Shown here piece by piece: positions 12,579 through 42,846 of a stretch of DNA of 64,000 bases; position 1 is the first letter of the stretch, and every line of letters begins with the position of its first letter. The position numbers were made by a program, and so were the translations under genes. Source of the stretch: Candidatus Lindowbacteria bacterium RIFCSPLOWO2_12_FULL_62_27 (GTDB lineage Bacteria > Lindowbacteria > 2-12-FULL-62-27); the NCBI GenBank assembly GCA_001784175.1, contig MFPR01000006.1, forward strand, positions 186,001 to 250,000, in the 5' to 3' direction. The notes below the pieces were generated by a model, which was not told where the DNA came from, did no database searches, and was given only the letters and a program-made list of their open reading frames with translations.

Positions 12579-13334
12579 ATGGACACGATGGATTCCACGA
12601 TTCTCGCGCCGCAGGTGATTGTGGCCGACGACGATGAACTGGCCTTGATGCTGCTGCAGGACGGGCTCAAAGGCATGGGATTTCAGACCGTCGGATGCAA
12701 GAACGGCAAGGAGGTGTTGCTTCTGGCGCTCAAGCGCGCGCCGGAGGCCATCCTCCTGGACGACCGCATGCCCGGGCTCGACAGCGTCCGGACCATCAAG
12801 CTGGTGCGGATCATGGAGCCGATCCGGGCCGTGCCGGTGATCCTCCTGGCGGAGACGCCGGACAGGGAGACGGTGGTGCGGGCCATCCAGATGGGCGCCA
12901 ACGACTGCGTGTCGAAGGAGGGATCGATCCACGACATCAACCTCCGGCTTCAGCGCGCCATCAAGGCGCCGGTGAAGCAGCCCGCGCCGCTGTTCGAGCA
13001 GCTCAAGTATTTCTTCCATTACGATGACACGTCCCTGACGCTCGACATCGAATCCGAAATCACGACCGAAGCCGGCAAGAACATGGTGGAGTTGGTCCGG
13101 TCCCTGACCGGGCTCATGCCCGTCAAGTTCCTCGTGAATCTGGACAAGGTTCCCGCCATCGCCGCAAGCGGGATCGGCTACCTTTCCGACGTCAAGGACA
13201 CGGTGATCAACTGCGGGGGCACCATTGCGCTGTCCCACGTCGATCTCAACCGCTACCAGCCGAACGTCCGGCGGTTCCTCGAGAAGTATTTCCAGATCGA
13301 GGTCCAGGCGGTCGTCGAGAAGAATCCGGGCTGA
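12579..13334 (+). CDS. Response regulator REC + STAS-like domain (paralog 1)
   Basis: VADDD...LLDDRMPG receiver; C-terminal NLDKVPAIAASGIGYL resembles the STAS DLxxVxxIDSSGLG motif. Confidence 0.8.
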   Translation: MDTMDSTILAPQVIVADDDELALMLLQDGLKGMGFQTVGCKNGKEVLLLALKRAPEAILLDDRMPGLDSVRTIKLVRIMEPIRAVPVILLAETPDRETVVRAIQMGANDCVSKEGSIHDINLRLQRAIKAPVKQPAPLFEQLKYFFHYDDTSLTLDIESEITTEAGKNMVELVRSLTGLMPVKFLVNLDKVPAIAASGIGYLSDVKDTVINCGGTIALSHVDLNRYQPNVRRFLEKYFQIEVQAVVEKNPG

Positions 13335-13340
13335 TCCGCC

Positions 13341-14624
13341 ATGGACCAGGCCGCGCCGTCCCAGTCCCAAATCGAATCCTTCATCCACTACCTCGTCGAA
13401 AACGAGATCGTCGACGCGGCCGCCGCGCGCCGCGCGCTCGAGGGGATCAGCCGGGTGGACCTGCGGATCGGCCGCGTGGCGCTCCTGGAGGGATTCATCT
13501 CGCCGGAGGAGATCAACAAGATCCTCTGGATCCAGCGGGAGGCGAATGACAGGAAGTTCGGCGAGATTGCGGTGGAGCTCAAGATCATGAAACCCGAAGA
13601 CGTCCGCCGCGCGCTCGAGCTTCAGCAGGATGAGCTGTTCGCCTTCTGCCAGTCCCTCATCATCGACGGCCTGATCTCGCCGGGGACGCTCTACGCGCTC
13701 CTCAAGGGATTTCTCGAGCAGGATTTCGACCGGGAGATCGAGCAGCGCCGGAGGGACGTGCACGCGCGGATTTCAAAATCGATCCGGGACGTCCTCAAAA
13801 AAATATCCATCGTCGCGCCCATGCCCGACACCGTCGCGCGGCTCCTGTCGATGCTCAACGACCCCGACGTCGACTTGGACGAAGTGGCGCGGGTCATCAG
13901 CCTGGATGTGGGTCTGACCGCGATGCTCCTCCGGCTGTCCAATTCAGCGTTCTACGGCCTCAAGTCCCAGGTCACCACGGTGAACAAGGCGGTGACGGTG
14001 ATCGGCACGAAGAAACTTCGGCAGCTCGTCATCTCCGCCGCCATGATGGACCGGTTCAAGAATCTTCAACGCGACCGGTTTCTCCGGTTCTGGGAGCAGT
14101 CGATGCGGGCGGCGCAGTGGTCGAAGGAACTGGCGCAGTTTGCGGGCAAGCCGGAGATCGACGAATTTTTTCTGGCCGGGTTTCTGCACAACATCGGCGA
14201 GATCGTCATTCTGCAGCATTTCCCGGACGAGGTGCGGCGGATCGAGGAACTGGCGCGCGGGGGCCGGCCGCCGCTGGAAAGCGAAGTCCAGGTTCTGGGA
14301 TGCGACCGGGCCGATATGGGATCGTATCTCCTGTCGCTCTGGCAGCTCCCGCCCGCCGTCGTCCAGGCGTCCATGCTCGCGCACCACCCGCGGCTGCACC
14401 TCCAGCAAATGTCGGGCATCACGCCCGAGTCCAAGGTCGTCAACATGGCCGTCGCCATCGTCAATTGCGCGCCCAACGTCAACGCCTTCGGCCAGGGCAT
14501 GCATCTCGGGCAGGTGGTGGAGGACTACAAGACCATCATCGCGATCGATTACCGGAACGTCAAGGAGATGCACGAGCGGGTCGAGAAAATCGTGCTGGAA
14601 CTGATGAGGTGGTTCAGCGTTTGA
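13341..14624 (+). CDS. MshEN-like repeat + HDOD domain protein (paralog 1)
   Basis: 24-aa RIGRVALLEGFISPEEINKILWIQ plus a second repeat; HDOD LLRLSNSAFYG, AGFLHNIG, LWQLP. Confidence 0.85.
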   Translation: MDQAAPSQSQIESFIHYLVENEIVDAAAARRALEGISRVDLRIGRVALLEGFISPEEINKILWIQREANDRKFGEIAVELKIMKPEDVRRALELQQDELFAFCQSLIIDGLISPGTLYALLKGFLEQDFDREIEQRRRDVHARISKSIRDVLKKISIVAPMPDTVARLLSMLNDPDVDLDEVARVISLDVGLTAMLLRLSNSAFYGLKSQVTTVNKAVTVIGTKKLRQLVISAAMMDRFKNLQRDRFLRFWEQSMRAAQWSKELAQFAGKPEIDEFFLAGFLHNIGEIVILQHFPDEVRRIEELARGGRPPLESEVQVLGCDRADMGSYLLSLWQLPPAVVQASMLAHHPRLHLQQMSGITPESKVVNMAVAIVNCAPNVNAFGQGMHLGQVVEDYKTIIAIDYRNVKEMHERVEKIVLELMRWFSV

Positions 14625-16584
14625 CGGGGGAGAGAAGGTCCCGGTAGGTTTCGTAGTAATGGATCGCGAATCCCGCGAACGAGGGGATTTTTGAAAGTTC
14701 GAACCGCGCCTGTTCCATCGCCAGCTTCAGCCGGTCCGCCGGCATCCCCGCGAACGTGACCTTCGAGGAGGGCACGAAAATCTTTTCCTTCAGCCGCCAG
14801 TAGCGCAGAGCGGCAGGGTCGATCCGCCTCGTTTTCGTCCACGCGACAAACGTGTCGAGGCCGCCCTCCGGCACATAATAAAACGCGCCGCTGTCGCCGC
14901 TCGCCCGGGCGAACAGGAATGTGCCGGCGGCCAGAACCGGCAGGCCCGCCTGGGCGTCCGTCCGGAAGGACCACTGGGTTTCGTCCGGCAGGCCGAACGT
15001 TTCGAGCCCGACGAAAATCGGCTTGCCGGCCTTCGCGGCATACTCGAGTTCTCCGCCGGCGTGCGCGATCACGCCGTCCGCGCCGTACGCGACCGTGCGG
15101 TAATCCATGATGCCGACGTTGTCGACGAGGTCGATGAGGTGGTCGCTGACGAGTTTCCGTTGGCCGCCGAATTCCACGATGAATTTCTCGTTCGTGAACT
15201 CATCCGGCGAGTCGAACCAGAACGGGACATCGCACCCGTACGGGAGGCCCGCGGCATGCGCGAGGTCACGGGATTTTTTGAGGATCAGAAGGAAATTCTG
15301 CAGAATCCAGTCGCGGCGGTACCCGCCGAATCCGGAATTCAAGTAGGGCTCGATGTCATAATGAAACGCGTAAAACCGCTCGATCGTGTCGGACTCGCGG
15401 TTGTACCGGATCACGTTGCGCATGGTCGCCAGGACGGTGTCGTGATACTCGGGCAGCGCAAACCGCGTCCAGCCGTCCATCGCATGGACTTTGACGCCCT
15501 TGCGGTTCAGCCGTCCGAGGAAGGGGCGCATGCGGCCGGCGTCGACGACCGACGCGCCGCCCGAATCGAGACGATCGGGCTCGTTGGGGATCTGGAGAAA
15601 CAGGTGATCGATTTTTTCGCGCATCATGAACTGGAGAAGCGCGTTTTGCTCGGCCGGGTTCTTGAGGTACTTCGACGTCTCCCAGACCCATGTGGCCTGT
15701 TTCAACCCCTTCCCCCCTTGTGGGGGAAGGCTGGGATGGGGGGCCCGTAGCGGCGGCGGTTTCCCCTGCGCCGTCACAAACGCGAGAGTTTTTAGATAAA
15801 CGGATCCCTGTTCTTCCCGTGACGCATCCAAGATCAATCCGGCGAGCTGATCCCGGCGGATGCCGTCCGGAAACGCCGTCAGCGGCACCCGCGCGAGCCG
15901 CCACTCCGTCGTGATCTCGCCACCCTCCACGAACGCCTCCAGCGGCCCGATCGGAAGCGCGTCTTCCTTCCGGTCCCAGTTCGCGTCTGAGATTTTCAAA
16001 TAGATATTCTCCCCGCCCTTCTCGCCTCTTACCCAGAACGCCAGCTCTGAAAACGGCTCCGCGTTGAGAAAAACACGGCTGTCCGGTTCATCCCTCAGAT
16101 TGTAAAAATGGGTCCACAGGCCGCAGAATCCCGTCGCGGCGCGGCTGTAGCGCAGCGCCAGCGCCCGCCGGCCGTCCGGCGTTGCTTCAATACCGCACAG
16201 AGCGCTCGAAGGCGCGCGCTGGTAGACGTTATAGTATCCGCCGAGGCTGTTTTGATTGCCCTCGTCGTAATGCGACACGAGAAATACGCCCCGCTCGCCG
16301 ATCTCGGGCGCCCGGCTCCTGTAGGCGGACGCGGCCGGCCTGACCGGCGGAACTTTGCGGAGCCTGTAAATGTCGAGCCTGTCTTTTTTTTCATGGATCA
16401 CACCGATCTGCCCGGCGCGGATTTCGGATACATCCTTGAAGCCCCAGTCGGCGAGCAGGATCTCCGTTCCCAGCACAGGATGCGGCACGTGTGATTCCGC
16501 GGCCGGCCGGTCGAAGGCCGTGCCGAGAAGGAAAGGAAGCGCGATAAAAATCGGAAGGATAACTCGCAGGGATCGGACGTTCAT
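14614..16584 (-). CDS. Secreted protein: CBM11/CIA30-like beta-sandwich + putative glycoside-hydrolase-like TIM barrel
   Basis: Signal-peptide-like N-terminus; LAFWVRGEKGGENIYLKI and EWRLARVPL; FHYDIEPY, GIMDYR, VGLET, GFAIHYYE. Confidence 0.65.
   Translation of the reverse strand: MNVRSLRVILPIFIALPFLLGTAFDRPAAESHVPHPVLGTEILLADWGFKDVSEIRAGQIGVIHEKKDRLDIYRLRKVPPVRPAASAYRSRAPEIGERGVFLVSHYDEGNQNSLGGYYNVYQRAPSSALCGIEATPDGRRALALRYSRAATGFCGLWTHFYNLRDEPDSRVFLNAEPFSELAFWVRGEKGGENIYLKISDANWDRKEDALPIGPLEAFVEGGEITTEWRLARVPLTAFPDGIRRDQLAGLILDASREEQGSVYLKTLAFVTAQGKPPPLRAPHPSLPPQGGKGLKQATWVWETSKYLKNPAEQNALLQFMMREKIDHLFLQIPNEPDRLDSGGASVVDAGRMRPFLGRLNRKGVKVHAMDGWTRFALPEYHDTVLATMRNVIRYNRESDTIERFYAFHYDIEPYLNSGFGGYRRDWILQNFLLILKKSRDLAHAAGLPYGCDVPFWFDSPDEFTNEKFIVEFGGQRKLVSDHLIDLVDNVGIMDYRTVAYGADGVIAHAGGELEYAAKAGKPIFVGLETFGLPDETQWSFRTDAQAGLPVLAAGTFLFARASGDSGAFYYVPEGGLDTFVAWTKTRRIDPAALRYWRLKEKIFVPSSKVTFAGMPADRLKLAMEQARFELSKIPSFAGFAIHYYETYRDLLSPVKR
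15706..15743. repeat. Solo palindromic REP-like unit inside a CDS, in frame
   Basis: CCCCTTCCCCCCTTGTGGGGGAAGGCTGGGATGGGGGG is the reverse complement of about 32156-32193. Confidence 0.9.
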
Positions 16585-18533
16585 GGGCTCCAGAACAAAT
16601 TGCCCGCAAATCCGCCCTCCAGCGCTTTCATCGCCAGGATCGCCCAGGCGGTGCCGATCGCCGACGGCGCCGGAGAAAACTGATGCTCGATTTCCCGGTC
16701 CGCGTACCGGATGCCGCCCCGGACGTTCATCTTCGGATCCAGCATATGGATCAGAATGTCCTCCGCCTCGCCGGGCTTGCCCAGCCGCGCGGCCGCGACG
16801 GCCACGCCGAGCGTCCCCTCGGACCAGGCCAGCTCAAATTCGTTCCAATCCATGCTCGGCTTGTTCGGGAAAAAATGATGCTGTGAAGGCGTGTCCTCGT
16901 AGACAGGCAAATCCAGATATGGCTTGTAGCCCAGAATCCCGTTCGACCGGTTGCGATACCGTCCGGCCGACTCCATGGCCGTCCGGGCGAGATCCCGCTC
17001 GCCCGCCGCTTCCAGAAACAGCGCGCCCCAGGACGCGCAGTCCAGTGCCTGGACCGTGTCGGGGCCGTCCGGCCTCATGCCCCTGTGGAACTGCCCGGTG
17101 GTTCGATCGAACATCTTGAGGAGGCCCGATCGTATTTTTTCGGCCGCCTCCCGGTACTTCGCCTGCTCGGTGATGTAGCCGAGGTCGCGCAGGAAAAAGA
17201 AGGCGTCGATATTATGCTCGGCGCTGCACCATACAACCTCACCCGGACGGTAGACTTCCTGAAGCGTCCCGCCTTCGGACGCGTAGATGTAGACGCCCTT
17301 GCCGCCGGTGACCAGCCCGTACCGCGGGTCGCCGGCGGATTGTATCTGCCGGCTCAAGACCGCCGATGCTATTTTTTCGGCGAACTGCAGGTAGTCGGCA
17401 AGGATGCGGTCGTCGTTCAAGGCATTGGGATTTTTCGCGAGCTCCGACAGAATGTAGTAACTGACCGCGTATCCCACCCAGCAGTTTGCGCCTGTGCGGA
17501 TGATGGCGCCGTCGTTGTCATTTTCGTCCGGCCATGTGTTGTGGGTATTGAGCCCGAACCAGAGATCGCCGTCGGGCCGGGCGCTGCGCATCATGCCGTT
17601 GATGATTTTGGCCGCCTCCCGGCCGCGGCCGAGCATGGAGAGCGCGATCACGGACACGGCGTTGTCGTAGATGGACGAGCGGGAAAATGTGTAGCGGTAG
17701 CCGTGCGCGGCCGGAGACTGGTTATAGGAAAGAACGAGACCGCGGCGCTGATAAACGGGAAAAGGAATCGTCGGGTTTGGCACCATCTGGCCGATCAGGA
17801 ACGCCTCGAGATCCGCCGCCTTTTCGGCCACGGCGCCCACGAGCGGTTTGTTTTTGCCGGAGGCGCGATACCGTTCCGTGACCTGCCGTTTGGGAAACAG
17901 TCTGGGCGGCGGCTCGGCGTCTCCAAAAACGGCGGTCGTGACGGCCGTCATGAAATCGGTGAAAATCTCGTCCGGCGCGCGGCGATCGGCCGCCCCCTGC
18001 CGGATCGAGAGGCGGAACATGAATGCGCCATCGGCCGACGTCTGGCGGGCGGAGTTTTTCCAGAAGAAGAAATAGTAGATGTGGTGAATTTCCCCGCCAA
18101 ACTCGGCGCGTGTGTATTTGACCTGCAGATCATCCGGCCCGATCCGGATCGTCTTGTATTTCCGCTTCTCCAGGGACCAGCCGTCGTCGATGTAGCAGAC
18201 CTCGGGGATGTGGAAATCGCTTTCGAATTTGCCGTAGACGACCATGAAATAAAGCTCAGCGCCGGTGGCGGAGTTCCGGTAAAACCGGGAACTCAGATAG
18301 GGATCCTCCCTGCCCTCAACCTCCTCGCCTTTCCACGCTCCCGCGGCGTACGGGATGCCGCCGAAGTTCCCGCTGTGAAACAGATGGGTTGCAAACGAAA
18401 CACGGGATTCGTGACCGGTGTAAAAATACTGGTTGACGTCCGAGACATAGGTGTGAAGCCGCGCCTCTACAGGCGCCTGCGCGATCAGCAGGGCCATGGC
18501 ATGAAAGACAAACCAGAAAGGCCCCCTTTTCAT
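16581..18533 (-). CDS. Exosortase-associated EpsI-like domain fused to a putative (alpha/alpha)6 glycoside-hydrolase-like domain
   Basis: EpsI-type HIPEVCYIDDGW and YYFFFW; C-terminal SIYDNAV, SAEHNIDAFF, ALDCASWG, WSEGT; ATG overlaps the exosortase stop. Confidence 0.7.
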   Translation of the reverse strand: MKRGPFWFVFHAMALLIAQAPVEARLHTYVSDVNQYFYTGHESRVSFATHLFHSGNFGGIPYAAGAWKGEEVEGREDPYLSSRFYRNSATGAELYFMVVYGKFESDFHIPEVCYIDDGWSLEKRKYKTIRIGPDDLQVKYTRAEFGGEIHHIYYFFFWKNSARQTSADGAFMFRLSIRQGAADRRAPDEIFTDFMTAVTTAVFGDAEPPPRLFPKRQVTERYRASGKNKPLVGAVAEKAADLEAFLIGQMVPNPTIPFPVYQRRGLVLSYNQSPAAHGYRYTFSRSSIYDNAVSVIALSMLGRGREAAKIINGMMRSARPDGDLWFGLNTHNTWPDENDNDGAIIRTGANCWVGYAVSYYILSELAKNPNALNDDRILADYLQFAEKIASAVLSRQIQSAGDPRYGLVTGGKGVYIYASEGGTLQEVYRPGEVVWCSAEHNIDAFFFLRDLGYITEQAKYREAAEKIRSGLLKMFDRTTGQFHRGMRPDGPDTVQALDCASWGALFLEAAGERDLARTAMESAGRYRNRSNGILGYKPYLDLPVYEDTPSQHHFFPNKPSMDWNEFELAWSEGTLGVAVAAARLGKPGEAEDILIHMLDPKMNVRGGIRYADREIEHQFSPAPSAIGTAWAILAMKALEGGFAGNLFWSP

Positions 18534-19324
18534 CGCCGTCGCCTTTTCAAAACCGCTCCGGCCCAGACAAGGCTTCCCAGCGCCATCAGATAGAAGATCC
18601 ATGCAGAAGGACCGTGCCAGAATTTGACGGCCGTGTCGACTCCCCACGCCTGCCCGACTCCCAGCATGGCGGTCACGCGGAGGACGTTGAAGGCGATCGA
18701 GGAGACGATGGAGAAGGCGATCAGCATGAACTTGCGCGCAAAGTTCAGTTCCAACAGATGCGCGAGAAGTGCGGAGATCGCGAAGAGCACGATCAGCGAT
18801 TGAAACCCGGAACAGGCGGCCGCCACGCGGACCGGGCCGTCCTTGAGATGCACCAGGGATCCTTCATGAGAAAGCGGCGCGCTCATGAGGGCCATAAGAC
18901 CGAGAGACGCGCGCTGCGCGAACAACTGCAGGATGGAGAGAAACTCCGCATAAAAAGGAAAGGGCATCGTGAAGAGCACGGCGCAGTAGAGGCCGTCGAC
19001 CCGCCGGGACACGCCGGGCGTCAGAAAACGGAGCAGCAGAATAGAAGTCAGCAGGAAGCTCGCCATTCCCAGATAGGGGCCCTTCCACGTGAGATAACAG
19101 CCCCACGCCACCACCGCCAGCGCCGCCCCCCATGCCGGGTGGCCGGCCGGGACCTGCTTCGGGGGCCGGAGTTTCTCGGCGATCCACCAGCCGGCGACGA
19201 AAAAAAGCGAGAAATCGTAGTACGGATTATCTACGCAGTTCCGCCCGTACCAGTAAAAGTCGTTTCTGAAAAAAACCGCCAGCCCCAGATGCAGGGCCGC
19301 GGCGGTCAGACTTTTTGCTGGCAA
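18530..19324 (-). CDS. Exosortase/archaeosortase family protein
   Basis: Multi-TM; catalytic triad motifs VAAACSGFQSL, FNVLRV, FWHGP. Confidence 0.92.
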   Translation of the reverse strand: MPAKSLTAAALHLGLAVFFRNDFYWYGRNCVDNPYYDFSLFFVAGWWIAEKLRPPKQVPAGHPAWGAALAVVAWGCYLTWKGPYLGMASFLLTSILLLRFLTPGVSRRVDGLYCAVLFTMPFPFYAEFLSILQLFAQRASLGLMALMSAPLSHEGSLVHLKDGPVRVAAACSGFQSLIVLFAISALLAHLLELNFARKFMLIAFSIVSSIAFNVLRVTAMLGVGQAWGVDTAVKFWHGPSAWIFYLMALGSLVWAGAVLKRRRR

Positions 19325-19563
19325 GTCCGGCAGCGTCTGGTCAGCAGGTACCCTCCACCGATGGCAGCCGCCCCGAGAATCATCCAGAGGCCTGGAAGTT
19401 CAGGGGCGCTGGGCGCTCCTTTTCCCTTGTCGCCACCCTTGTCGTCGCTCTTGCCCTTGTCGACACTCTTTCCTTTATCCGCGTCCTTTTCCGCATACAC
19501 GATGGGCGCAACCGCAAACAGAACAACCGCGGTCACCAGGACCACACACACGATACGTTTCAC
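19306..19563 (-). CDS. Small secreted protein with a PEP-CTERM-like sorting tail (APELPG-TM-RR)
   Basis: Signal peptide, DKG low-complexity core, APELPG, hydrophobic helix, basic TRRCR; adjacent to the exosortase. Confidence 0.75.
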   Translation of the reverse strand: MKRIVCVVLVTAVVLFAVAPIVYAEKDADKGKSVDKGKSDDKGGDKGKGAPSAPELPGLWMILGAAAIGGGYLLTRRCRTCQQKV

Positions 19564-24072: not shown

Positions 24073-24077
24073 CAGAC

Positions 24078-28967: not shown

Positions 28968-28975
28968 ACAGAATG

Positions 28976-32200: not shown

Positions 32201-32217
32201 ACAGTGAAAAGAGAGCG

Positions 32218-33969: not shown

Positions 33970-33979
33970 GGACTGGGCC

Positions 33980-34882: not shown

Positions 34883-34891
34883 AGACCGGTG

Positions 34892-34953
34892 ACGCTATAT
34901 TAATATGGAGGAGAAGTAAACCTGTTTTTTATGACCTTGGGGTAAGGTACACT
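34892..34953. promoter_or_regulatory. Divergent promoter region (minus strand TTTACT-N17-TAGCGT; plus strand -10 TACACT)
   Basis: AT-rich 80-bp gap between divergent genes; both -10 boxes lie 9 nt from their ATG. Confidence 0.45.
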
Positions 34954-34962
34954 CTCGCCGAC

Positions 34963-36117
34963 ATGAACCTCAACGTTCTTGTGGTGGACGACGAAGCGGA
35001 TGTGTGCGAGGTCCTGAAAGACGGCCTGAAGGTGCACGGGATCGGCGTCACGATCGCCCGCGACGGCAAGGAGGCCGTTCTTCAGGCGCTCGTCAAGGCG
35101 CCGGACGCCGTGCTCATGGACATCCTTATGCCCGGGCTGGCCGGACTCGACGCGCTCGGCCTGTTCAAAATCATCGAGCCGATCCGGACCGTGCCGGTGA
35201 TCATGCTGACGGCGTTGAAGAGCAAGGAAGACATTCTGAACGCCATGCGGGCCGGTGCGGCGGATTACATCGGAAAGCCGTTCGACATCGCCGACACGGT
35301 GACCCGCCTCCGGCGGGTCGTGGCCCGGCCCGCGCCCATGACATTTCCCGTGTTCCGATATCTGTCGTATCGCGCGGGATCGGACGGCCGGGGCCTGCGG
35401 CTGGAACTCGAAGGGGATTTCTCAGAAGACGCGGCGGAGGATCTGGAGGTCCTGATCCGGGCGCTGTTGCCGCTGCAGCCGGTCCGGATCGACCTCGATT
35501 TCGAGAAAGTTCCGAACATCGGCGACCGGCTGGTTCCGAATCTCGTCGCGGTCCGGGACATGGCGGCGGCCCGGGGCGGTAAAGTTCTGGTCGCGAATCT
35601 CGATCCCAAAAAATACCGCGCCGCGGCCGTGTCCCCCATCCGAAACATCTTTCCGGCCGTCCCGGCGCCGCCGGAAGAACCTGTGCGGTCCACACGGGCC
35701 TCGAAAAAAGTGGACGCCGTCGCAAAAGACATCGACGAACAGATGTCCCAGGTCCTTTCGCGCCTCCCCGGACTCCGCTTCGATTTCAAGCTGCGGAACG
35801 AACTGTCCGTGCTCGAGCTTCAGGGACAACTGACCGGGGACACCAGGAGCGAAGTCGAGAAGGCGTTCCAGGCCGTCACGGAGGCCCACGCGCACGTGAT
35901 GGTCGTCATCGAGAAGGCTTCCCAGTTCGACGCGCGCGGCATGCTGCACTTGGTGGAAAAAATCACGGACACGAAAAACCGGGAGGGACTGAAAGTCTAC
36001 GTCGTTTGCCGCAATCAGGAGCTGCAGGTGGCCTACCGGAACGCCCGTGGGCATCTGGTGGCCGGCATCTACGACGATCGCGACAAGGCGCTGTCGTCGT
36101 TCCGGGCGTCCGGGTGA
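34963..36117 (+). CDS. Response regulator REC + two STAS-like domains (paralog 2)
   Basis: VVDDE...LMDILMPG...GKPF; LELEGDF...LDFEKVPNI and LELQGQL...IEKASQFDARG. Confidence 0.8.
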   Translation: MNLNVLVVDDEADVCEVLKDGLKVHGIGVTIARDGKEAVLQALVKAPDAVLMDILMPGLAGLDALGLFKIIEPIRTVPVIMLTALKSKEDILNAMRAGAADYIGKPFDIADTVTRLRRVVARPAPMTFPVFRYLSYRAGSDGRGLRLELEGDFSEDAAEDLEVLIRALLPLQPVRIDLDFEKVPNIGDRLVPNLVAVRDMAAARGGKVLVANLDPKKYRAAAVSPIRNIFPAVPAPPEEPVRSTRASKKVDAVAKDIDEQMSQVLSRLPGLRFDFKLRNELSVLELQGQLTGDTRSEVEKAFQAVTEAHAHVMVVIEKASQFDARGMLHLVEKITDTKNREGLKVYVVCRNQELQVAYRNARGHLVAGIYDDRDKALSSFRASG

Positions 36118-36563: not shown

Positions 36564-36575
36564 CGCCGCTTGGGG

Positions 36576-38192
36576 ATGGGCATGGAATCCGATACGATCG
36601 CCCAGGGCGAGGAACGATTTCAGAATCTCCTTCAGGCGATCCCCGACATCATCTACAAGATCGATCCGGCCGGCCGCTTCGTGTTCGTCAACGACTCCAT
36701 CCGGAGGCTCGGCTATGAGCCGGCGGACCTGATCGGAAAACATTTCAGCGAGATCCTCCACCCCGACGACGTGGCCCGGGTCAGCCGGGAGAACGTGCTG
36801 CCGAAACTTTCCGGGAAGCTGACGGGCGACGACCAGGCGCCGAGACTCTTTGACGAGCGCCGGACGAGAATGCGCATGACGAAAAATCTGGAGGTCCGCC
36901 TGCGCCCGAAAAACCGGGCCGACGTCAAGTTCGGCGAGGTCTTCGCGTATGGCGAGATCATCTCCACCGGACAGTTCGACCGCGACATCCGGAACCACAA
37001 CAAGACGTTTCTGGGTACCGTCGGCATCATCCGCGACGTCACGGACCGAAAAACCATGGAGGAAAAGCAGAAACGCCTGCAGGAACAGCTCATCCAGTCC
37101 GAGAAACTGCGGGCCCTCGGCGAAGTCCTCTCCAGCGTCGCGCACGAACTCAACAACCCTCTCACCGCCATCATCGGCTACGCCCAGCTCATGCAGTCCG
37201 CCGAAAACATCGAGTCGTGCCGCTCGGACCTCGACGCGATCCGGCAGGAGGCCAAACGCTGCGCCGACATTGTCCAGAACCTGGTCGCGTTCGCCCGGAA
37301 AAAGGGATTCCGGCGCGAGCCCTGCCGGATCAACCAGCTCATCGCCAATACGCTGAAGTTCCGGTCCTATCAAATGACGGTCGACAGCGTCCGCGTGTCC
37401 GTTTCGATGGATGACCGGATCCCCCAGACGATGGCGGATCCGAACCAGCTCCAGCAGGTCTTTCTGAACATCGTCAACAACGCGCTGGACGCGATGAAAA
37501 AGTCGCAGGTCCGGAGGCTGGAGGTGACCAGTCACCTGGTCGGAGAGATCATCCGGGTTTCGTTTGCGGACAGCGGCTGCGGGATTTCGACGGAGCATCT
37601 GGGCCGGATCTTCGAGCCGTTCTTCACGACCAAAACCGCCTCCGGCGGCACCGGACTCGGCCTCAGCGTCTGCTACGGCATCGTCACCGACCATGGCGGA
37701 AGGATCCGGGCCGAAAGCGAGCCCGAGAAGGGCGCCACGTTTGTCGTGGAACTGCCGGTGGTGGCGCCGCCCCTGTCCTACGAATTCTCGCCGCAGGACG
37801 CGGAGGAACCGCGGAAAGCTCCGCAGGCGGCGGCGGTCCTCGTGGTGGATGATGAACGTTCGTGCCTGGATGTCTTCGAGCGCTATCTCCGGCAGGTGGG
37901 CTGGTCGGTCCAAACGGCCGACACCGTGGGCAAGGCCATCGATCTCCTGGACCGGACGAAATTCTCCTTGATTGTCTCGGACCACAAAATGCCCGGGCGG
38001 GGCGGGGAGGAACTCTATGAGCACGTCGCCCGCCGGCACCCGCGCCTCCTGGACCGGTTCATTCTGGTCTCGGGCGACGTCATCAATCCCGCGTCGCGGC
38101 TGTTCATTGAAAAAAGCCGCGTGCGGGTACTCGAAAAACCGTTCGCGATGGAAAAACTCTCGGACCTGATGTCGGAGGTGCTGGAGGCCTGA
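36576..38192 (+). CDS. PAS-domain hybrid sensor histidine kinase (PAS-HisKA-HATPase-REC)
   Basis: PAS (IPDIIYKID...HPDD), VAHELNNPL, QVFLNIVNNA, DSGCGI, FEPFFTTK, GTGLGL, C-terminal receiver SDHKMPG. Confidence 0.95.
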   Translation: MGMESDTIAQGEERFQNLLQAIPDIIYKIDPAGRFVFVNDSIRRLGYEPADLIGKHFSEILHPDDVARVSRENVLPKLSGKLTGDDQAPRLFDERRTRMRMTKNLEVRLRPKNRADVKFGEVFAYGEIISTGQFDRDIRNHNKTFLGTVGIIRDVTDRKTMEEKQKRLQEQLIQSEKLRALGEVLSSVAHELNNPLTAIIGYAQLMQSAENIESCRSDLDAIRQEAKRCADIVQNLVAFARKKGFRREPCRINQLIANTLKFRSYQMTVDSVRVSVSMDDRIPQTMADPNQLQQVFLNIVNNALDAMKKSQVRRLEVTSHLVGEIIRVSFADSGCGISTEHLGRIFEPFFTTKTASGGTGLGLSVCYGIVTDHGGRIRAESEPEKGATFVVELPVVAPPLSYEFSPQDAEEPRKAPQAAAVLVVDDERSCLDVFERYLRQVGWSVQTADTVGKAIDLLDRTKFSLIVSDHKMPGRGGEELYEHVARRHPRLLDRFILVSGDVINPASRLFIEKSRVRVLEKPFAMEKLSDLMSEVLEA

Positions 38193-38198: not shown

Positions 38199-39479
38199 TC
38201 ACTCGAACTTGAACATCTTTTTCATCTCTTCCGTCTTGTCCCGCACCGTCACCGCGATGTCCTCCACCACCAGATTCTGAAGCCCGAGCCGGGCGCGGTA
38301 GGGATCGGCCAGGGACCCGATCTTCGCCATGTACTCGTAGGGGTCGATGTCGGAATCGAGGCCCGTGAGCGTTGCCGCGAGATGCACGATCATGGCCTCC
38401 GGCTTGATCGACTTCATCTGCTCGATCTGGCCGATGGGATAATGGTGGATCATGGCGCCCTGGATGACCACGGGCGGGAACTGCCAGATTTCGAACAGAA
38501 ACGACCCGATGTCCGCATGGCATCCTCCCAGAACCTGCCGCTCGGCCACCAGCGGATCTGTTCCGGAAGATTTCAGTTTCACGATCTCCTCATGTTCCGC
38601 AGGGAAATGCTGGTAGATCGCGAGTTCCCCCACGTTGTGGATGAAGCCATTGATGAACAGCATGTCGACGTCCGGTATTTTCAGAAACGTCCCGACTTCC
38701 TTGCACCACTGGGCCGCGGCAATGGCGCGGTCCCAGAATCGCGCCGCCTCCTCGGGCGGGATGTCCTTGAATTTCTGCATGACGCCCGCCACCAGCACCA
38801 GTTCCTTCACCTTCTTGGTGCCCAGCACCACCAGCGCCTGGGTGACCGTCTTGGCCTGTGACCGCAGTCCGTAAAAAGCCGAATTGACGATGCGGAGCAA
38901 GGTCGTGACGAGTCCCGGATCGATCGTGATGACCTTGCCGACCGCTTCCATGGAGGTCTTCGGATCGTCGAGCATCTGCGACACTTTCGTGACGACGCCG
39001 GGCAGCGGCGCGATGCCCTTGATCTTCTGCAGATTCTTCCGGATGTCGCCCTTCAGGCCGGCGGGCTTGCCGTCGCCCGGTCCCGCGCCCGCCGGCGCGG
39101 CGGCCTGCGCCGGCAGCGCCGCCATGAACGGCTTCAAAAGCCCCACCATCTCCGGCAGAGTCGCGACGCCGGCCGAGACGGCGGCCTGCGCGAACGAAAA
39201 CAGTTCGTCCCGCTGCAGCCTCAGAATCTCGTCGCCCTTCGTGTTGTCGATGTATCCCATCTCGACCGCCAGCTCGATGAATTTCTTGTTCACCTGCGTC
39301 TGGGACAGCATGACCTTGCTGACCTGCTCGGGCGTCAAAAACCCGCGCAGCATCGCAAGCTGGCCGATCCGCCGGTCCAGTTGCTGCATGGCCTTCACCG
39401 CGCGGATGATCTTCTCCTGTTCCATCAGCTTGTTGGTGCGAAGGTGGGCGATAAAGGTCTGGAGCGTCTGGATGTTCAT
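38199..39479 (-). CDS. MshEN-like repeat + HDOD domain protein (paralog 3)
   Basis: RIGQLAMLRGFLTPEQVSKVMLSQ; LLRIVNSAFYG, GFIHNVG, HADIG. Confidence 0.85.
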   Translation of the reverse strand: MNIQTLQTFIAHLRTNKLMEQEKIIRAVKAMQQLDRRIGQLAMLRGFLTPEQVSKVMLSQTQVNKKFIELAVEMGYIDNTKGDEILRLQRDELFSFAQAAVSAGVATLPEMVGLLKPFMAALPAQAAAPAGAGPGDGKPAGLKGDIRKNLQKIKGIAPLPGVVTKVSQMLDDPKTSMEAVGKVITIDPGLVTTLLRIVNSAFYGLRSQAKTVTQALVVLGTKKVKELVLVAGVMQKFKDIPPEEAARFWDRAIAAAQWCKEVGTFLKIPDVDMLFINGFIHNVGELAIYQHFPAEHEEIVKLKSSGTDPLVAERQVLGGCHADIGSFLFEIWQFPPVVIQGAMIHHYPIGQIEQMKSIKPEAMIVHLAATLTGLDSDIDPYEYMAKIGSLADPYRARLGLQNLVVEDIAVTVRDKTEEMKKMFKFE

Positions 39480-39535
39480 CGCCGTTCATATAATTCTGTT
39501 CCAATCCCAAAGTCAATATGATACGAGGGGGGCCG

Positions 39536-40297
39536 ATGATCGCGGAAGAGGAAAACTTGGACCATGCTCCAGCCGTGGAAAGCGCCGCGGCGCCAACCCG
39601 CGTCCTGGTTTTGGAGGACAACGACGACGGCCGGGAACTTTTGGTGGAGGGCCTGCAGAGTTCCGGCTGCGCGGCGCAGGGCGTAAAACGCGGCCGGGAG
39701 GCGGTATTGTCCGCCCTGCGGGACGCGCCGGATGTCCTGCTGGTCAATCCGGCGGCCTGCCAGATGGATCCCGTGCGGCTCCTGAAAATGATCAAACTGC
39801 TTGAGCCGCTCCGCCGCCGTCTCGTGTTTGTCATGCTGGACCTGGCGGACAAAGACGAGGTTCTGCGGCTGGTCCAGGCGGGCGCGGACGGGTGCGTGTC
39901 CAAGGACCTGTCGGTTCATGCGATCTACCTGAAACTCGCGCAGAGCCTCAAGCAACCGCGCGCGCCGGCGCCGACGCCGTTTGAACATCTTCGTTTCTCC
40001 GTACAGGCCGAGGGAGACACCGTCACGATCAGCGTCGAATCGGAACTGTCGGGCCCCTGCGCCAAGGAACTCGTGGCACTGGTCCGAACGCTCATCCCCG
40101 TCCAGCCATTCGCGCTTGTTCTGTCCCTGGAAAAAACGCCGGCCATCGCCACGAGCGCCATCGGTTACCTGTCCGAAGTCAAGGACACGGCGAAAGACTG
40201 CGGGGGGACATTCGTGCTGGCGCGCTTCGACGCCTCGAAATATCTTCCAAACATCCAGCGGGTGATCAAAACGAATTTCCAGATCACCCCGAATTGA
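39536..40297 (+). CDS. Pseudo-receiver REC + STAS-like domain (paralog 3)
   Basis: Clear paralog of 12579-13334 (LEKTPAIATSAIGYLSEVKDT); phosphoacceptor position is N (LLVNP); alternative start at 39518. Confidence 0.8.
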   Translation: MIAEEENLDHAPAVESAAAPTRVLVLEDNDDGRELLVEGLQSSGCAAQGVKRGREAVLSALRDAPDVLLVNPAACQMDPVRLLKMIKLLEPLRRRLVFVMLDLADKDEVLRLVQAGADGCVSKDLSVHAIYLKLAQSLKQPRAPAPTPFEHLRFSVQAEGDTVTISVESELSGPCAKELVALVRTLIPVQPFALVLSLEKTPAIATSAIGYLSEVKDTAKDCGGTFVLARFDASKYLPNIQRVIKTNFQITPN

Positions 40298-41564
40298 AAA
40301 TGGCCATGATGTTGCCGACCGCCGCGGAGATCTGGTCATGGGCCGTGCCGGCGTCCAGCGTGGAGAGGCCCTGCAGCGGCAGGCCCCGGTAGCGACCGAC
40401 GGTTTTGTCCAAAAGTTCGTGGAATTGAAAATCATCGAACGTTGACTCGATCCCCGACAGCGCCCCCGCGAGGTGCACCACCAGAACCTGGGACTTGACG
40501 TTCGGCATCGCCGACACCACGCTGAGATCGTGGTGATGCAGCATGGTGGACTGGATGATTTCGGCCGGCAGCTGCCAGAGCCCGAACAGATAGCCGCCGA
40601 GGTCCGCGTGCGTCCCTCCGAGATGCTCGCGCTCGGCTTCGAGGCGGTCGGCGCCGCCCGCCGCCTGCGCGTCGACGGCCGCCGCCTCCGCCCGGAAATA
40701 CTGCTGGACGAGCAGCTCGCCGACATTGTGGAGCAGGCCCGCCACGAACAGCTCATCGGCCTCGGCGAACCGGCACTGATGCCCGATCGTCTTGGCCCAC
40801 TCGCCCGCCCAGACCGACCGTTCCCAGAACCGGGCGGAGAAGTCGGGTGGCACGTTCCGGAACTTGTCCATGACCGCCGCCGCGAGGATGAGCTGGCGCA
40901 GTTTGGTGAGACCGAGCACCACGAGGGCGTTTTTGACGTTGCCGATGCGCGACCGCAGACCGTAGAATGCGGAGTTGACCATCTTGAGCAGGAGGCTGAC
41001 AAAGGAAGGATCGAGGGACAGCACCTGGCCGAGCTTGCCGAGGTCGACGTCCGGATCGTTGAGCATGGACATCGCCTTGGCGGCGGTCGGCGGCAGGGGC
41101 GCGATGGCGTTGATGCTCTTGAGCACTTTCTTGACGCGCACGATCGTCGCCTTCTGCGCCTCTTCGCTCGGATAGTCCGCCGGCGCGGTGAGGCCGCGGT
41201 CTTTCTGAAACTCATCCAGGCATTTGAGCATCCGGTCCATGGTGGAGAGCTTGAGAAGCACCGCCGCCTGGGAAAACAGGAAGAGATCGTCGTTCTGAAT
41301 ACGCAGCACCCGCTCGACCTGCTCGGATTTCATCGCCTGAACCTCGACCGCGCATTCTCCGAACCGCCGGCCAGAATCGCGGCTCTGGGCCTCCAGGATC
41401 TGCGCGATCTGCTCAGGTTTCAGAAACCCGTAGAGCGCCGCAAGCTGGCCGAGGCGCCGGTCCAGCCGGCCGTACTGTTTCAGCACCCGCTGAACGTCGG
41501 CCGGCCCCATCAGGTTCTGGCCGCGCAGGTATCCCATGAAGGCCTGGCATCGCGCGAGGCTCAT
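40284..41564 (-). CDS. MshEN-like repeat + HDOD domain protein (paralog 4)
   Basis: RLGQLAALYGFLKPEQIAQILEAQ...RFGECAVEV; LLKMVNSAFYG, AGLLHNVG, HADLGG. Confidence 0.85.
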   Translation of the reverse strand: MSLARCQAFMGYLRGQNLMGPADVQRVLKQYGRLDRRLGQLAALYGFLKPEQIAQILEAQSRDSGRRFGECAVEVQAMKSEQVERVLRIQNDDLFLFSQAAVLLKLSTMDRMLKCLDEFQKDRGLTAPADYPSEEAQKATIVRVKKVLKSINAIAPLPPTAAKAMSMLNDPDVDLGKLGQVLSLDPSFVSLLLKMVNSAFYGLRSRIGNVKNALVVLGLTKLRQLILAAAVMDKFRNVPPDFSARFWERSVWAGEWAKTIGHQCRFAEADELFVAGLLHNVGELLVQQYFRAEAAAVDAQAAGGADRLEAEREHLGGTHADLGGYLFGLWQLPAEIIQSTMLHHHDLSVVSAMPNVKSQVLVVHLAGALSGIESTFDDFQFHELLDKTVGRYRGLPLQGLSTLDAGTAHDQISAAVGNIMAIFNSG

Positions 41565-41565
41565 G

Positions 41566-42846
41566 TCACTTCCACTCGGTGAAGGACGTGAGCAGGTTCC
41601 CGAAATGCGTGTCGACCTGCTCGGCCAGCCGGTCGACGGCCATGTCCGGGCGGAACTTCAGCGGCGCCTGATAACGCTTGCTGATCTTTTCGAGCTCCTC
41701 CATGTACCCGAGCGCGTCCAGCTTCGGATCGAGATCGCAGATGTCGGCGGCCATGTGGACCACGAAGACCGCCGGCGACAGGTTGGGGCTGTTCACGAGA
41801 AGCTGGAGGTCATGGTGGTGGAACATCGCGCTCTGGATCGTGTCCTTGGGCATCTGCCACAGGTTGAACAAAAACCCGCCGACGTCCGCGTGCGACCCGC
41901 CGAGGACCGACTTTTCGGCGTCCACCATCCGTTTTCCTCCCCTCACCATCTCGTCGATCTCGTTTTGCTGCGGGCGGAAATACTGCATGGTCACGAGGTG
42001 GCCGGTGTTGTGCAATAGCCCGCAGACGAACAGCTCGTCCGATTCCTCCATCCTCAGCGCCTCGCCCAGCTCCTTGCTCCACTGCGCGCACCGCAGGGAA
42101 TCCTCCCAGAATTTCTGTGCGAAGGCCGGCGGGATCGACTGGAACTTCTGCATGACCGCGGCCGCGATGATCAGTTGCCGGATCTTCTTCAGCCCCAGCA
42201 CCACCAGGGCCTTCGTGACGCCCGTGACCTTTTCGCGCAGGCCGTAGAAGGCGGAGTTGACCACGCGAAGGAGCGTCGCGGTGAGACCGGGATCGAGGAT
42301 CAGCACGCCGCCGACTTTGTCCAAATCGACGTCCGGATCCTCCAGCATGCTGACTGCGCGCTGGGCGGTCGCAGGCAGCGGAGAAATTTTTTCGATCCCC
42401 TGAAGAATCGACCGGACCTGGCGGTCGATCCCGATCTTCTCGATGCTCGGCGGCGCCTCCGCCTCCCGGGCCATGTCGGGGTTGGCGCCGAGGAAGGACC
42501 TGATGTGGGACACGATCTTGTCGGTCGTGGTGAGTTTCTGGGTCACGGCGGCCTGCGCGAAGAGGAAGAGGTCGTCTTTTTGAAGTTTGATCAGCATGTC
42601 GATTTGCTGGGGGTTCATCAGTTTCAACCGCACGGCGCATTCCCCGAACCGGTCGCCGCTGCGGGCCTGCTCGAGGAGAATGGTGTTGATGTCCTCCGGC
42701 TGGATGAATCCGCGAAACGCGCCGAGGTGTCCAAGCCGCCGGTCAAACACGCTCATCTGCTTGACCGCCCTCAGCACGTCCTCCTGCTTCATCACGTCCT
42801 GCCCCCGCAGGTACTGGATGAACCGCTGCAATTTCGCGAGGCTCAT
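41566..42846 (-). CDS. MshEN-like repeat + HDOD domain protein (paralog 5)
   Basis: RLGHLGAFRGFIQPEDINTILLEQ...RFGECAVRL; very similar to paralog 2 along its length. Confidence 0.85.
   Translation of the reverse strand: MSLAKLQRFIQYLRGQDVMKQEDVLRAVKQMSVFDRRLGHLGAFRGFIQPEDINTILLEQARSGDRFGECAVRLKLMNPQQIDMLIKLQKDDLFLFAQAAVTQKLTTTDKIVSHIRSFLGANPDMAREAEAPPSIEKIGIDRQVRSILQGIEKISPLPATAQRAVSMLEDPDVDLDKVGGVLILDPGLTATLLRVVNSAFYGLREKVTGVTKALVVLGLKKIRQLIIAAAVMQKFQSIPPAFAQKFWEDSLRCAQWSKELGEALRMEESDELFVCGLLHNTGHLVTMQYFRPQQNEIDEMVRGGKRMVDAEKSVLGGSHADVGGFLFNLWQMPKDTIQSAMFHHHDLQLLVNSPNLSPAVFVVHMAADICDLDPKLDALGYMEELEKISKRYQAPLKFRPDMAVDRLAEQVDTHFGNLLTSFTEWK

Follow-up and report, generated by a model that had tools for sequence, protein, structure and literature searches.

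An MshEN_N-type module joined to HDOD in nine paralogs of a Lindowbacteria genome: candidate c-di-GMP receptors

Five paralogs and their gene neighbours

The window, by which we mean the whole stretch of 64,000 nucleotides analysed here, contains five reading frames of 425-427 amino acids (W1 to W5, Table 1), where a preliminary description of this DNA had placed five paralogs of about 426 residues with one shared architecture. That architecture, a region of N-terminal repeats followed by an HDOD domain, is present in all five, and the string quoted as an example of the repeats, RLGQLAALYGFLKPEQIAQILEAQ-SRDSG-RRFGECAVEV...LRIQ, is found in W4. The reading frame of W2 runs from a TTG codon (27690-29021, minus strand), and the alignment of the paralogs indicates that its start is most likely the ATG at 28967.

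Table 1. Positions in the window of the five paralogs, their domains and motifs, and nearby genes
Feature	Position	Strand	Remarks
W1 (427 aa)	13341-14624	+	
W1 N-domain	13341-13730	+	aa 1-130
W1 motif 1	13464-13535	+	R42-Q65
W1 motif 2	13554-13625	+	K72-Q95
W1 HDOD	13818-14387	+	aa 160-349
W2 (425 aa)	27690-28967	-	
W2 motif 1	28788-28859	-	
W2 motif 2	28701-28772	-	
W2 HDOD	27933-28502	-	
W3 (426 aa)	38199-39479	-	
W3 motif 1	39300-39371	-	
W3 motif 2	39213-39284	-	degenerate
W3 HDOD	38439-39011	-	
W4 (426 aa)	40284-41564	-	
W4 motif 1	41385-41456	-	
W4 motif 2	41295-41366	-	
W4 HDOD	40530-41102	-	
W5 (426 aa)	41566-42846	-	
W5 motif 1	42667-42738	-	
W5 motif 2	42580-42651	-	
W5 HDOD	41812-42384	-	
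REC + STAS-like protein (251 aa)	12579-13334	+	6 bp upstream of W1; paralogue of the 259-aa protein
REC + STAS-like protein (259 aa)	39518-40297	+	between W3 and W4, opposite strand; REC E 3.8e-8
TPR protein	26833-27693	-	directly downstream of W2
Single-domain receiver (REC)	26284-26817	-	after the TPR gene
PAS-HisKA-HATPase-REC hybrid histidine kinase	36570-38192	+	convergent with W3
REC-GGDEF gene	25199-26287		

Pairwise identity among W1 to W5 ranges from 35 to 68%. Genome-wide there are nine full-length paralogs (30-68% identity), and other genera carry orthologues of seven. The expansion is therefore old, and the term 'locally expanded' used earlier is misleading. A scan of genome contigs with a single protein returned one locus, an unrelated HDOD protein matching in its HDOD part only (29% identity), with records of the genome itself possibly excluded.

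The neighbours conserved in relatives are REC-STAS, TPR, REC and kinase genes. The pair formed by W1 and the REC + STAS-like gene is kept in two other genera. The pair of W2 and the TPR gene, in which the stop codon of W2 overlaps the start of its neighbour, is kept in three, and is followed by the receiver gene in G001 and G002. In G002 the kinase gene again adjoins W3, and the gene for the 259-residue REC + STAS-like protein, whose STAS match (E 0.036) is under the Pfam cut-off, holds its position. Proteins in which REC, the N-domain and HDOD are fused occur as well (P0090, P0091 and one in G003). A complex prediction for W1 and the protein encoded upstream of it, run without controls, scored 0.00, which speaks neither for nor against an interaction.

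The paralogs were first described as bracketing a glycan-synthesis operon, and in this genome they do. However, in G001 and G002 the same paralogs adjoin without the exosortase/GT2 block. Escherichia coli NfrB is reportedly a fusion of a GT2 glycosyltransferase with MshEN, in which a receptor of MshEN type is linked to exopolysaccharide synthesis. W2 resembles it in being co-directional with the GT2/exosortase genes, but W2 is a separate protein rather than a direct fusion. Because the link to the block is not kept in these related genera, we downgraded the possibility that W2 is a trans-acting c-di-GMP receptor for the GT2 synthase of the same gene string. The REC-GGDEF gene was rejected as a local source of c-di-GMP; its motif reads EPVMF, and positions 2-108 of the 161 in the profile are matched.

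The N-terminal module and its relation to MshEN_N

The N-terminal 120 residues form four helical hairpins of 29 residues each, arranged as an eight-helix stack, with the 24-residue MshEN motif present only in the inner two. The tandem of MshEN-pattern repeats noticed at the outset is thus real, although it is part of a set of four hairpins, not two. The two motifs are separated by five residues in W2, W3 and W5 (24+5+24) and by six in W1 and W4 (24+6+24). The inner hairpins, 1 and 2 in a count from 0 to 3, are mutual repeats (hhalign 95%, E 1.8e-8). The outer hairpins can be aligned in register with this inner pair, yet the signal is weak (hhalign 20-57%) and neither retains the Gly at position 3, and they were not accepted as true MshEN motifs. 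In the AlphaFold2 models residues 93-123 are two helices, and no strands are predicted ahead of HDOD, as would be needed for a complete MshEN with its MshEN_C (T2SSE_N1) part. Lacking an alpha/beta subdomain after the helical bundle, the paralogs fall under the 'MshEN_N only' architectures of Wang et al.

Comparison with the Pfam model of MshEN (PF05157), proposed in the preliminary description as a check, came out negative, with no match in any of the five paralogs at E ≤ 1. Its six matches in the genome all lie outside the window and more than 5 kb away from any HDOD place, and a pairing of the paralogs with PilB-like ATPases was discarded. Regular expressions also proved too rigid as family detectors. 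The relaxed form of the published motif (Wang et al. 2016) occurs three times in the six-frame translation of the window (127,996 residues), always within the paralogs; it accepts motif 1 in three of the five copies and motif 2 in none, and a strict form likewise recovers motif 1 in some copies and motif 2 in none. A core pattern, [RKLM]-h-G-x13-h-x3-h-x2-Q, occurs 11 times in the same 127,996 residues. Nine of these are in the paralogs, where it matches both motifs in four copies and motif 1 alone in W3.

Since PF05157 missed the domain, we built family profiles. Among 177,635 PDB sequences the N-domain profile matched two proteins below E 0.1 and nothing else, namely PilF (E 1.3e-6, in three stretches) and MshE (5HTL, E 0.0033). 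Residues 32-88 of the query align with residues 4-60 of the 5HTL chain, which places R37 on R9, Q60 on Q32, and the start of motif 2 on R38. With the full-length profile, PilF and MshE were again the two matches outside the HDOD proteins. The family profile also finds the genuine MshEN region in a T2SSE-type ATPase of this genome (E 9.1e-5) and in frames of about 560-625 amino acids from other genomes.

AlphaFold2 models of W4 are confident for the full-length protein (pLDDT 89.8, pTM 0.88) and for the eight helices of the N-domain (pLDDT 90.9). The ten best Foldseek matches of the N-domain model are all c-di-GMP complexes of MshE or PilF-GSPII-B (rmsd 1.0-2.7 Å over 53-61 columns); the short length of the match makes for weak E-values (0.12-1.3). 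Compared by VIA-align with 48,161 representative chains, the model reached Z ≥ 8 with three, all of MshEN type. The best is 5htl_B (Z 10.8, rmsd 2.0 Å, 59 residues aligned, model 35-94 to chain 7-65), a value to be read with the caution attached to the tool, that helical bundles can reach Z of about 13 by chance. In these models the inner two hairpins pack into a bundle of four helices, which can be superposed on MshEN_N, the c-di-GMP-binding subdomain of MshE and PilF. The profile match in exact register and the predicted fold together uphold the earlier claim that the repeats are homologous to MshEN_N.

The same bundle in Vibrio cholerae MshE contains two 24-residue motifs with a five-residue spacer and the same R/G/L/Q register (PMC5013675). 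However, the paralogs lack the beta subdomain and the ATPase of MshE, having HDOD as output instead, and carry two extra degenerate hairpins that flank the bundle and might affect access to its pocket. Their motif 2 also differs. Its first residue is variable, being R, K, L or M in 29 of 36 family members and compatible with the extended (R/K/L) consensus; position 2 is F in place of L; and the turn glycine at position 10 (G47 of MshE), which Wang et al. call highly conserved (PMC5013675), is absent in 35 of 36 family members and in four of the five window copies. Thermus thermophilus PilF GSPII-B (8PDK, Z 9.3-10.2) belongs to the protein with the best profile match and offers a parallel for the non-Arg first position, since K and L there are reported to bind c-di-GMP, with hydrophobic residues raising affinity (PMC11731258). 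Unlike the paralogs, PilF is a pilus ATPase and contains three full GSPII domains, and the Asp contact described for its C-terminal subdomain (PMC11731258) has no counterpart in them.

The module as a whole has a counterpart in CheX fusions. Supplementary Table 4 of Wang et al. (PMC5013675) gives an (MshEN_N)2-CheX architecture for Geobacter lovleyi Glov_2742, and CheX-fused proteins, which account for no fewer than 20 of the 150 top-ranking cluster representatives, align with the module end to end over its approximately 115 residues (profile positions ~7-122, E 1e-13 to 1e-16). By sequence, then, the N-domain and the (MshEN_N)2 module of these proteins are homologues. The two families differ in output (CheX phosphatase or HDOD) and in the extent of the motif, hFG...G...Q being present in all four hairpins of the CheX family and in the inner two alone of the HDOD family.

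Across the 36 family members R37, G39, G46, F68 and Q90 are invariant and make up five of the nine invariant columns of the N-domain, while L57 (35/36), G69 (34/36) and Q60 (30/36) are kept in most members. By their correspondence to 5HTL, the best-conserved columns are those of the ligand-contact residues. Both half-sites are intact in seven of the nine paralogs, including W1 (K at motif 2 position 1), W2 (M at that position) and W4 (both motifs begin with R). One half-site is degenerate in W3 and in the C14 copy. In W3 the changes in motif 2 are G3 to I and L17 to G, and this half-site is probably weakened. The changes in W3 and in the C14 clade are of the same kind as the replacement of Gly by a bulky residue in XpsE and the loss of Gln in PilF (Q190E), which are reported to abolish or weaken binding (PMC5013675, PMC11731258).

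We conclude that the N-domain likely binds c-di-GMP, a prediction from sequence and models. It might instead be a degenerate MshEN_N scaffold that binds no nucleotide and serves for interaction or dimerisation, as in XpsE or in the X. citri PilB N-domain, which binds PilZ. The silence of PF05157, the missing turn glycine and the loss of Gly in the flanking hairpins are all consistent with this, as is the structural match of these non-binders themselves (Z 7.7-8.2 for PilB-N, 7.4 for XpsE-N), and the motif is described as lost in many MshEN domains (PMC5013675). However, the invariant columns are mostly ligand contacts of 5HTL (R, G, F/L, Q), and the signature of the inner hairpins is kept even in distant HDOD-fused lineages. 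Moreover, Z is 9.8-10.8 for the c-di-GMP-bound structures but 7.4-8.2 for those of degenerate type, and identity is 22-32% to binders but 7% to degenerate relatives. We therefore consider a scaffold of this kind unlikely.

The HDOD domain and its metal site

PF08668 matches all five window copies over residues ~155-349 (E 4.6e-47 to 4.8e-54; 160-183 bits against a Pfam gathering score of 22.9), in an alignment that spans positions 2-195 of the 196 in the profile, as the preliminary description had anticipated. PDB matches to this part include 3HC1, 3M1T, 9QZK and 1VQR, and in a single-sequence search the closest solved HDOD is 3HC1 (E 4.2e-23), in which five His and one Asp are reported to hold two iron ions (PMC12075610).

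This similarity raises the possibility that the paralogs are enzymes regulated by c-di-GMP, the N-domain controlling an HDOD that still has a metal site and splits a phosphoester such as c-di-GMP, pGpG or some other nucleotide. The paralogs retain the dyad's His, as they do the His of GxxHADxG in seven of nine paralogs and the HH(H) cluster in eight of nine; the dyad itself is intact in W2 and in the C3 copy. There is also a weak signal of the HD-family profile PF01966 in four of the five window copies (E 3.5e-4 to 0.012), under the cut-off in all five. However, the window copies lack the complete H...HD...H...HH..D ligand set of 3HC1. In place of H122, the first His ligand, the paralogs have D, R, N, Q or A, and no window copy keeps it; in seven of nine paralogs Asn stands for the bridging Asp, so that the dyad reads HN; and in W1, which has HN, the third His is also lost to R (GCDRADMG). 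In addition, the literature we consulted reports no catalytic HDOD protein, and describes Pseudomonas SadB, which also has an incomplete metal site, as an HDOD adaptor in a c-di-GMP-related biofilm pathway (PMC12075610). An enzymatic function is accordingly improbable. The N-domain of SadB is YbaK/ProRS-like, in contrast to the MshEN_N of the paralogs, and P. aeruginosa SadB is reported not to bind c-di-GMP in a Biacore assay (PMC12075610).

A candidate class of c-di-GMP receptors

The fusion is not restricted to this genome. The same N-domain-HDOD arrangement accounts for 30 of the 150 top-ranking cluster representatives from metagenomes. A Candidatus Hydrogenedentota cluster in the ESM Atlas (59 members, 445 aa) has the same domain order and size and a structural match over residues 1-424 (TM 0.64). 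It comes from another phylum, and its N-domain is recognized by PF05157 in 100% of members, whereas that of the paralogs goes undetected. To call the family new, as the preliminary description did, is therefore overstated. In the literature we found no paper describing the fusion, and MshEN_N-HDOD is an uncharacterised form of a known kind of receptor.

The genome encodes an ordinary c-di-GMP complement, with 11 strong GGDEF and 2 EAL matches, 4 PilZ matches and 6 of MshEN-ATPase type. If they bind, the nine MshEN_N-HDOD paralogs would be its largest class of c-di-GMP receptor candidates. Binding of another cyclic dinucleotide such as 3'3'-cGAMP in place of c-di-GMP, to which the off-canonical motif 2 and a section title of Wang et al. 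2016, 'MshEN can also bind cGAMP' (PMC5013675), might point, is very improbable given this complement and the retention in both half-sites of all positions that make guanine-discriminating contacts in 5HTL.

The most probable picture of each paralog is a soluble signalling protein of two domains. In the reading that we favour, with a probability of roughly 60%, c-di-GMP binds in seven paralogs, the N-domain shifts on HDOD, and the output is a non-catalytic interaction with conserved neighbours. The inner bundle of the seven intact-site paralogs would bind one c-di-GMP with sub-micromolar affinity, while W3 and the C14 copy would bind it more weakly or not at all. Binding would alter the seating of the N-domain on HDOD, which would act as a protein-interaction output as in SadB. 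The partners and output of HDOD are purely conjectural at this stage; likely targets would be the REC-STAS proteins, the TPR protein, the receiver and the hybrid kinase. The nine old paralogs may then be parallel read-outs of c-di-GMP into two-component or partner-switching circuits.

A broader proposal is more tentative, and we would give it well below even odds. MshEN_N-HDOD may be the main c-di-GMP receptor class of this deeply isolated lineage and HDOD a genuine c-di-GMP output. Each of the anciently diverged paralogs would sense local c-di-GMP with an affinity that depends on the residue opening motif 2, and would in response bind or release a partner of its own (REC-STAS, TPR or receiver). 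If so, the second messenger would be coupled directly to phosphorelay and partner-switching circuits, and the widespread HDOD domain would for the first time have a defined input and mechanism.

HDOD domains are very common in bacterial signalling. To our knowledge their function is essentially unknown, and SadB, the best-studied example, is an adaptor without a defined ligand input. Fusion to a well-understood, high-affinity c-di-GMP module would supply such an input and make the function of HDOD directly testable. The set of nine diverged paralogs, in two of which one half-site has degenerated naturally, comes with its own controls. Pfam labels these proteins as HDOD only, so censuses of c-di-GMP receptors undercount this lineage, and probably others too; the fusion may thus represent a receptor class overlooked by standard annotation.

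The window paralogs and their N-terminal domain

The preliminary description placed in this region five paralogs of about 426 amino acids, each with an N-terminal tandem of MshEN-like repeats and an HDOD domain. Open reading frames of 426-427 amino acids (W1-W5) are indeed present at all five positions, and their products are alignable from end to end with pairwise identities of 35-68%. The HDOD assignment likewise holds, with strong matches to the PF08668 profile in all five (E 4.6e-47 to 4.8e-54, residues ~155-349). The W2 frame reaches a TTG at 29021; judged by the paralog alignment, translation probably begins at the ATG at 28967. P0019, a database form of W2, begins at an internal Met of motif 2 (MFGECA...) and looks like a gene call that removes most of the sensor domain. 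A hydrophobicity scan found no convincing membrane segment in W1-W5 or in four further paralogs on other contigs (best 19-residue window 1.3-1.9); the most hydrophobic window is in a charged helix of the HDOD core in seven of the nine copies, and in the remaining two it lies in a different helix of the HDOD or N-domain.

The AlphaFold2 models (full length, pLDDT 89.8 and pTM 0.88; N-domain alone, pLDDT 90.9) show residues 1-123 as eight helices, which form four helix-turn-helix hairpins (h0-h3) with a period of 29 residues. By hhalign h1 is a clear repeat of h2 (95%, E 1.8e-8), and h0 and h3 match the two in register, though weakly (20-57%). W5 has exactly 24+5+24 residues across h1 and h2, and the spacer is six residues long in W1 and W4. 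The published relaxed MshEN motif, sought in all six frames of the window, has three occurrences, all within the paralogs, and nine of the 11 occurrences of the core motif pattern also lie there; the motif in these proteins is real rather than a product of chance.

The Pfam search proposed earlier came out negative, in that PF05157 has no match in W1-W5 at E ≤ 1; its six matches in the source genome all lie in frames of 518-623 amino acids on other contigs. However, a family profile built from 24 N-domains, including 19 database members picked from 36 full-length relatives (alignment A2), gave only two matches below E 0.1 among 177,635 PDB sequences. These are Thermus thermophilus PilF (E 1.3e-6), with one matching stretch in each of its three GSPII domains, and Vibrio cholerae MshE (5HTL, E 0.0033), the latter in exact register (R37=R9, Q60=Q32, motif 2 beginning at R38). 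PilF and MshE are again the two non-HDOD matches in the PDB to the full-length family profile. Positions 36-89 of the N-domain profile also match a PF05157-positive ATPase frame of the source genome (E 9.1e-5) and frames of ~560-625 amino acids in other genomes.

The predicted fold agrees with this assignment. The best 10 Foldseek matches of the N-domain model in the PDB are all MshE or PilF-GSPII-B complexes with c-di-GMP (rmsd 1.0-2.7 Å, 53-61 columns, 24-32% identity), with E-values (0.12-1.3) that are weak because the matched part is short. With VIA-align, three of 48,161 representative chains reach Z ≥ 8, and all are of MshEN type (5htl_B, 10.8; PilF, 10.2 and 9.8), followed by the degenerate Xanthomonas citri PilB-N (7.7) and XpsE-N (7.4). 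The matched region is h1 plus h2 (model residues 35-94). We regard the homology of the N-domain to MshEN_N as solid, although the proposed repeat tandem is invisible to PF05157 and is in fact a set of four hairpins with weakly aligned outer members. As the paralog models lack the MshEN_C beta subdomain, the proteins fall into the class termed 'MshEN_N only' by Wang et al. 2016 (PMC5013675). As separate observations, MshEN_N-like hairpins give sub-threshold Pfam matches to FumaraseC_C and DUF4388/PatA_N, and the C-terminal domain of fumarase C matches model residues 37-99 in structure (7c18_A, Z 6.5); these families may share a hairpin unit.

Predicted ligand contacts and the HDOD domain

Conservation at the c-di-GMP contact residues, as assigned by Wang et al. 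(PMC5013675), was counted over 36 family members. In motif 1, all of them have R1, G3 and the turn G, 35 have L at position 21 and 30 have Q24. Motif 2 has F at position 2 and Q24 throughout and G at position 3 in 34, and signature positions of the motif make up five of the nine columns that are invariant in the N-domain. Motif 2 starts with different residues among the members (R in 12, K in 8, L in 5, M in 4, others in 7). According to a PilF study (PMC11731258), K and L at the first-residue positions bind c-di-GMP better than R, and the consensus was widened to (R/K/L). In motif 2, 35 of 36 members lack a turn Gly, W3 is changed in motif 2 (G3 to I, L17 to G), and the clade of the paralog on contig C14 (6 of 36) lacks Q24 of motif 1. 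Such changes are reported to reduce or abolish binding in XpsE (PMC5013675) and PilF (Q190E; PMC11731258). Both half-sites are thus intact in seven of the nine paralogs. Binding of c-di-GMP is predicted from these residues as probable. Weighing the altered sites against the invariant columns, we consider it unlikely that the N-domain is a ligand-free scaffold.

The nearest solved structure to the HDOD domain is 3HC1 (E 4.2e-23, single-sequence search), whose di-iron site consists of five His and one Asp (PMC12075610). The paralogs mostly retain the later His ligands, and W2 and the copy on contig C3 keep the HD dyad. However, the first His is replaced, the dyad is HN in the other seven, and the PF01966 match stays under its cut-off. 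Together these favour a domain that, like the one in SadB, lacks catalytic activity or at most binds metal, and make it quite improbable that the paralogs are a regulated HD-type hydrolase. SadB, an HDOD protein, is a proteolysis adaptor and did not itself bind c-di-GMP (PMC12075610).

Distribution and age of the family

The N-domain profile matches 2,882 cluster representatives among 1.84 billion at E ≤ 1e-3. Among the best 150, four were already known family members, and the remainder were scanned for domains, 68 of them at E ≤ 1e-3 and another 78 at E ≤ 1e-5. HDOD occurs in 30 of the 150 (two as REC-N-HDOD, three as fragments), CheX in at least 20 and the T2SSE ATPase in three; the rest include stand-alone modules and multi-repeat proteins with zinc ribbons. 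Four of the last kind (P0083, P0088, P0102, P0108; 590-860 aa) carry 5-7 tandem MshEN_N-like hairpin modules. The CheX-fused proteins have the architecture given as (MshEN_N)2-CheX by Wang et al. (PMC5013675), with the motif in all four hairpins, whereas HDOD fusions, near and distant, have it in the inner two only. The ESM Atlas holds a cluster of 59 Hydrogenedentota members, all with PF05157 and PF08668, and one of 144, mostly Thermodesulfobacteriota, with HDOD and PatA_N.

Among the papers listed in literature searches on HDOD together with MshEN, T2SSE_N, GSPII or c-di-GMP, and on HDOD alone from 2019 on, we found no published description of an MshEN-HDOD fusion. The partners in Supplementary Table 4 of PMC5013675 are T2SSE, GT2, REC, HD-GYP, CheA, CheX, cyclase, kinase, AAA_31, M23 and TrxB, and 'HDOD' does not occur in two supplementary files of that paper. 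The fusion had been put forward as a candidate new family, uncharacterised so far; the second attribute stands, but the fusion is already in databases. It represents a known kind of receptor, in a variant that has yet to be characterised and that routine annotation overlooks in this lineage.

Of the nine full-length paralogs in the source genome (4.39 Mb, 44 contigs, 94% complete), five lie in the window and four on other contigs. The genome further contains five other HDOD proteins and one closely related HDOD-only gene, located 3' of a sigma-54 activator gene, whose HDOD part is very near the paralogs (E 7.8e-101) and which lacks the N-domain. Three same-family genomes in a sample of 40 relatives carry 4-5 full-length copies each; the lineage is very isolated, since all other genomes of the sample are related to it at no level below the domain. 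In a maximum-likelihood tree built from these nine paralogs, 11 copies of the three relatives and three distant outgroups, seven of the nine group with orthologues of other genera, five of these groupings with support of at least 95/80. The expansion is therefore old, with no recent local burst, and the earlier view of a locally expanded family does not survive. Profile matches in the genome include 11 strong and four weak ones to GGDEF, two to EAL and four to PilZ; that the ligand is another cyclic dinucleotide seems highly improbable.

Gene neighbourhood and proposed function

Features of the window, of the N-domain and of a related locus
Feature	Position	Strand	Remark
Receiver + STAS-like protein	12579-13334	+	adjoins W1
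W1	13341	+
Exosortase/DUF3485/TPR/GT2/HEAT/REC-GGDEF block	14614-26287		missing at the same place in G001 and G002 (paralogs adjacent)
GT2, longest ORF	22642-24345	-
HEAT-repeat gene	24078-25211	-
REC-GGDEF protein	25199-26287	-
W2	27690	-
P0019	27690-28772	-	360 aa
GH94-like/SSF/HDOD/REC-STAS block	28990-36117		missing at the same place in G001 and G002 (paralogs adjacent)
Sixth HDOD protein	33980-34882	-	300 aa
Receiver + STAS-like protein	34963-36117	+	adjoins sixth (stand-alone) HDOD protein
W3	38199	-
Receiver + STAS-like protein	39518-40297	+	adjoins W3/W4
W4	40284	-
W5	41566	-
Hairpin h0	residues 8-31		W4 numbering
Hairpin h1	residues 37-60		W4 numbering
Hairpin h2	residues 67-90		W4 numbering
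Hairpin h3	residues 96-119		W4 numbering
L012	G000:C19:35000-39000		sigma-54 activator (REC-AAA-HTH, 550 aa), then HDOD-only protein

W2 lies in a long string of genes that all run on the minus strand (GH94-like, W2, TPR, REC, REC-GGDEF, HEAT, a processive-type GT2 with QRLRW, TPR, exosortase, DUF3485, CBM30-like), and W1 lies on its other side after a REC-STAS-like gene. The GGDEF domain within this string carries EPVMF as its signature, matches only positions 2-108 of the 161 in the profile, and is probably degenerate and non-catalytic. The longest GT2 frame overlaps the HEAT-repeat gene by ~270 nucleotides and opens with ~90 Arg/Gly-rich residues, so its true start probably lies further downstream.

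In G001, a relative from another genus, the order is W2-TPR-REC, directly followed by a convergent W1-REC/STAS pair (L017). A 9.2-kb contig of a second such genome, G002 (L019), has W4, REC-STAS, W3, kinase, W2, TPR, REC and W1. The REC-STAS, TPR, REC and kinase neighbours are thus part of a conserved unit. The two blocks between the paralogs fall outside it, being absent from both orders, and reflect either insertion in the source genome or loss in G001 and G002. The paralogs do bracket a glycan-synthesis operon in the source genome, as had been claimed, but not in these relatives, where the exosortase/GT2 block is absent between them. REC-N-HDOD fusions occur in G003, from a further genus, and in metagenomes.

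Pairing of a REC-STAS gene with one of HDOD type recurs three times in the window. The REC-STAS proteins adjoining W1 and W3/W4 are clear paralogues, with STAS parts under the Pfam cut-offs. The sixth HDOD protein of the window (E 1.3e-60) lacks an N-terminal sensor module and has HG at the HD dyad.

Our main reading, to which we give a probability of roughly 0.6, is that the paralogs are soluble c-di-GMP receptors. The inner MshEN_N-type bundle (h1 and h2) would bind one c-di-GMP, and binding would alter the interaction surface of the non-catalytic HDOD output. We infer this output and its targets, which would most likely be the REC-STAS, TPR and receiver proteins encoded in the conserved neighbourhood. 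The fusion is of moderate interest because through it the enigmatic HDOD domain would gain a testable input.
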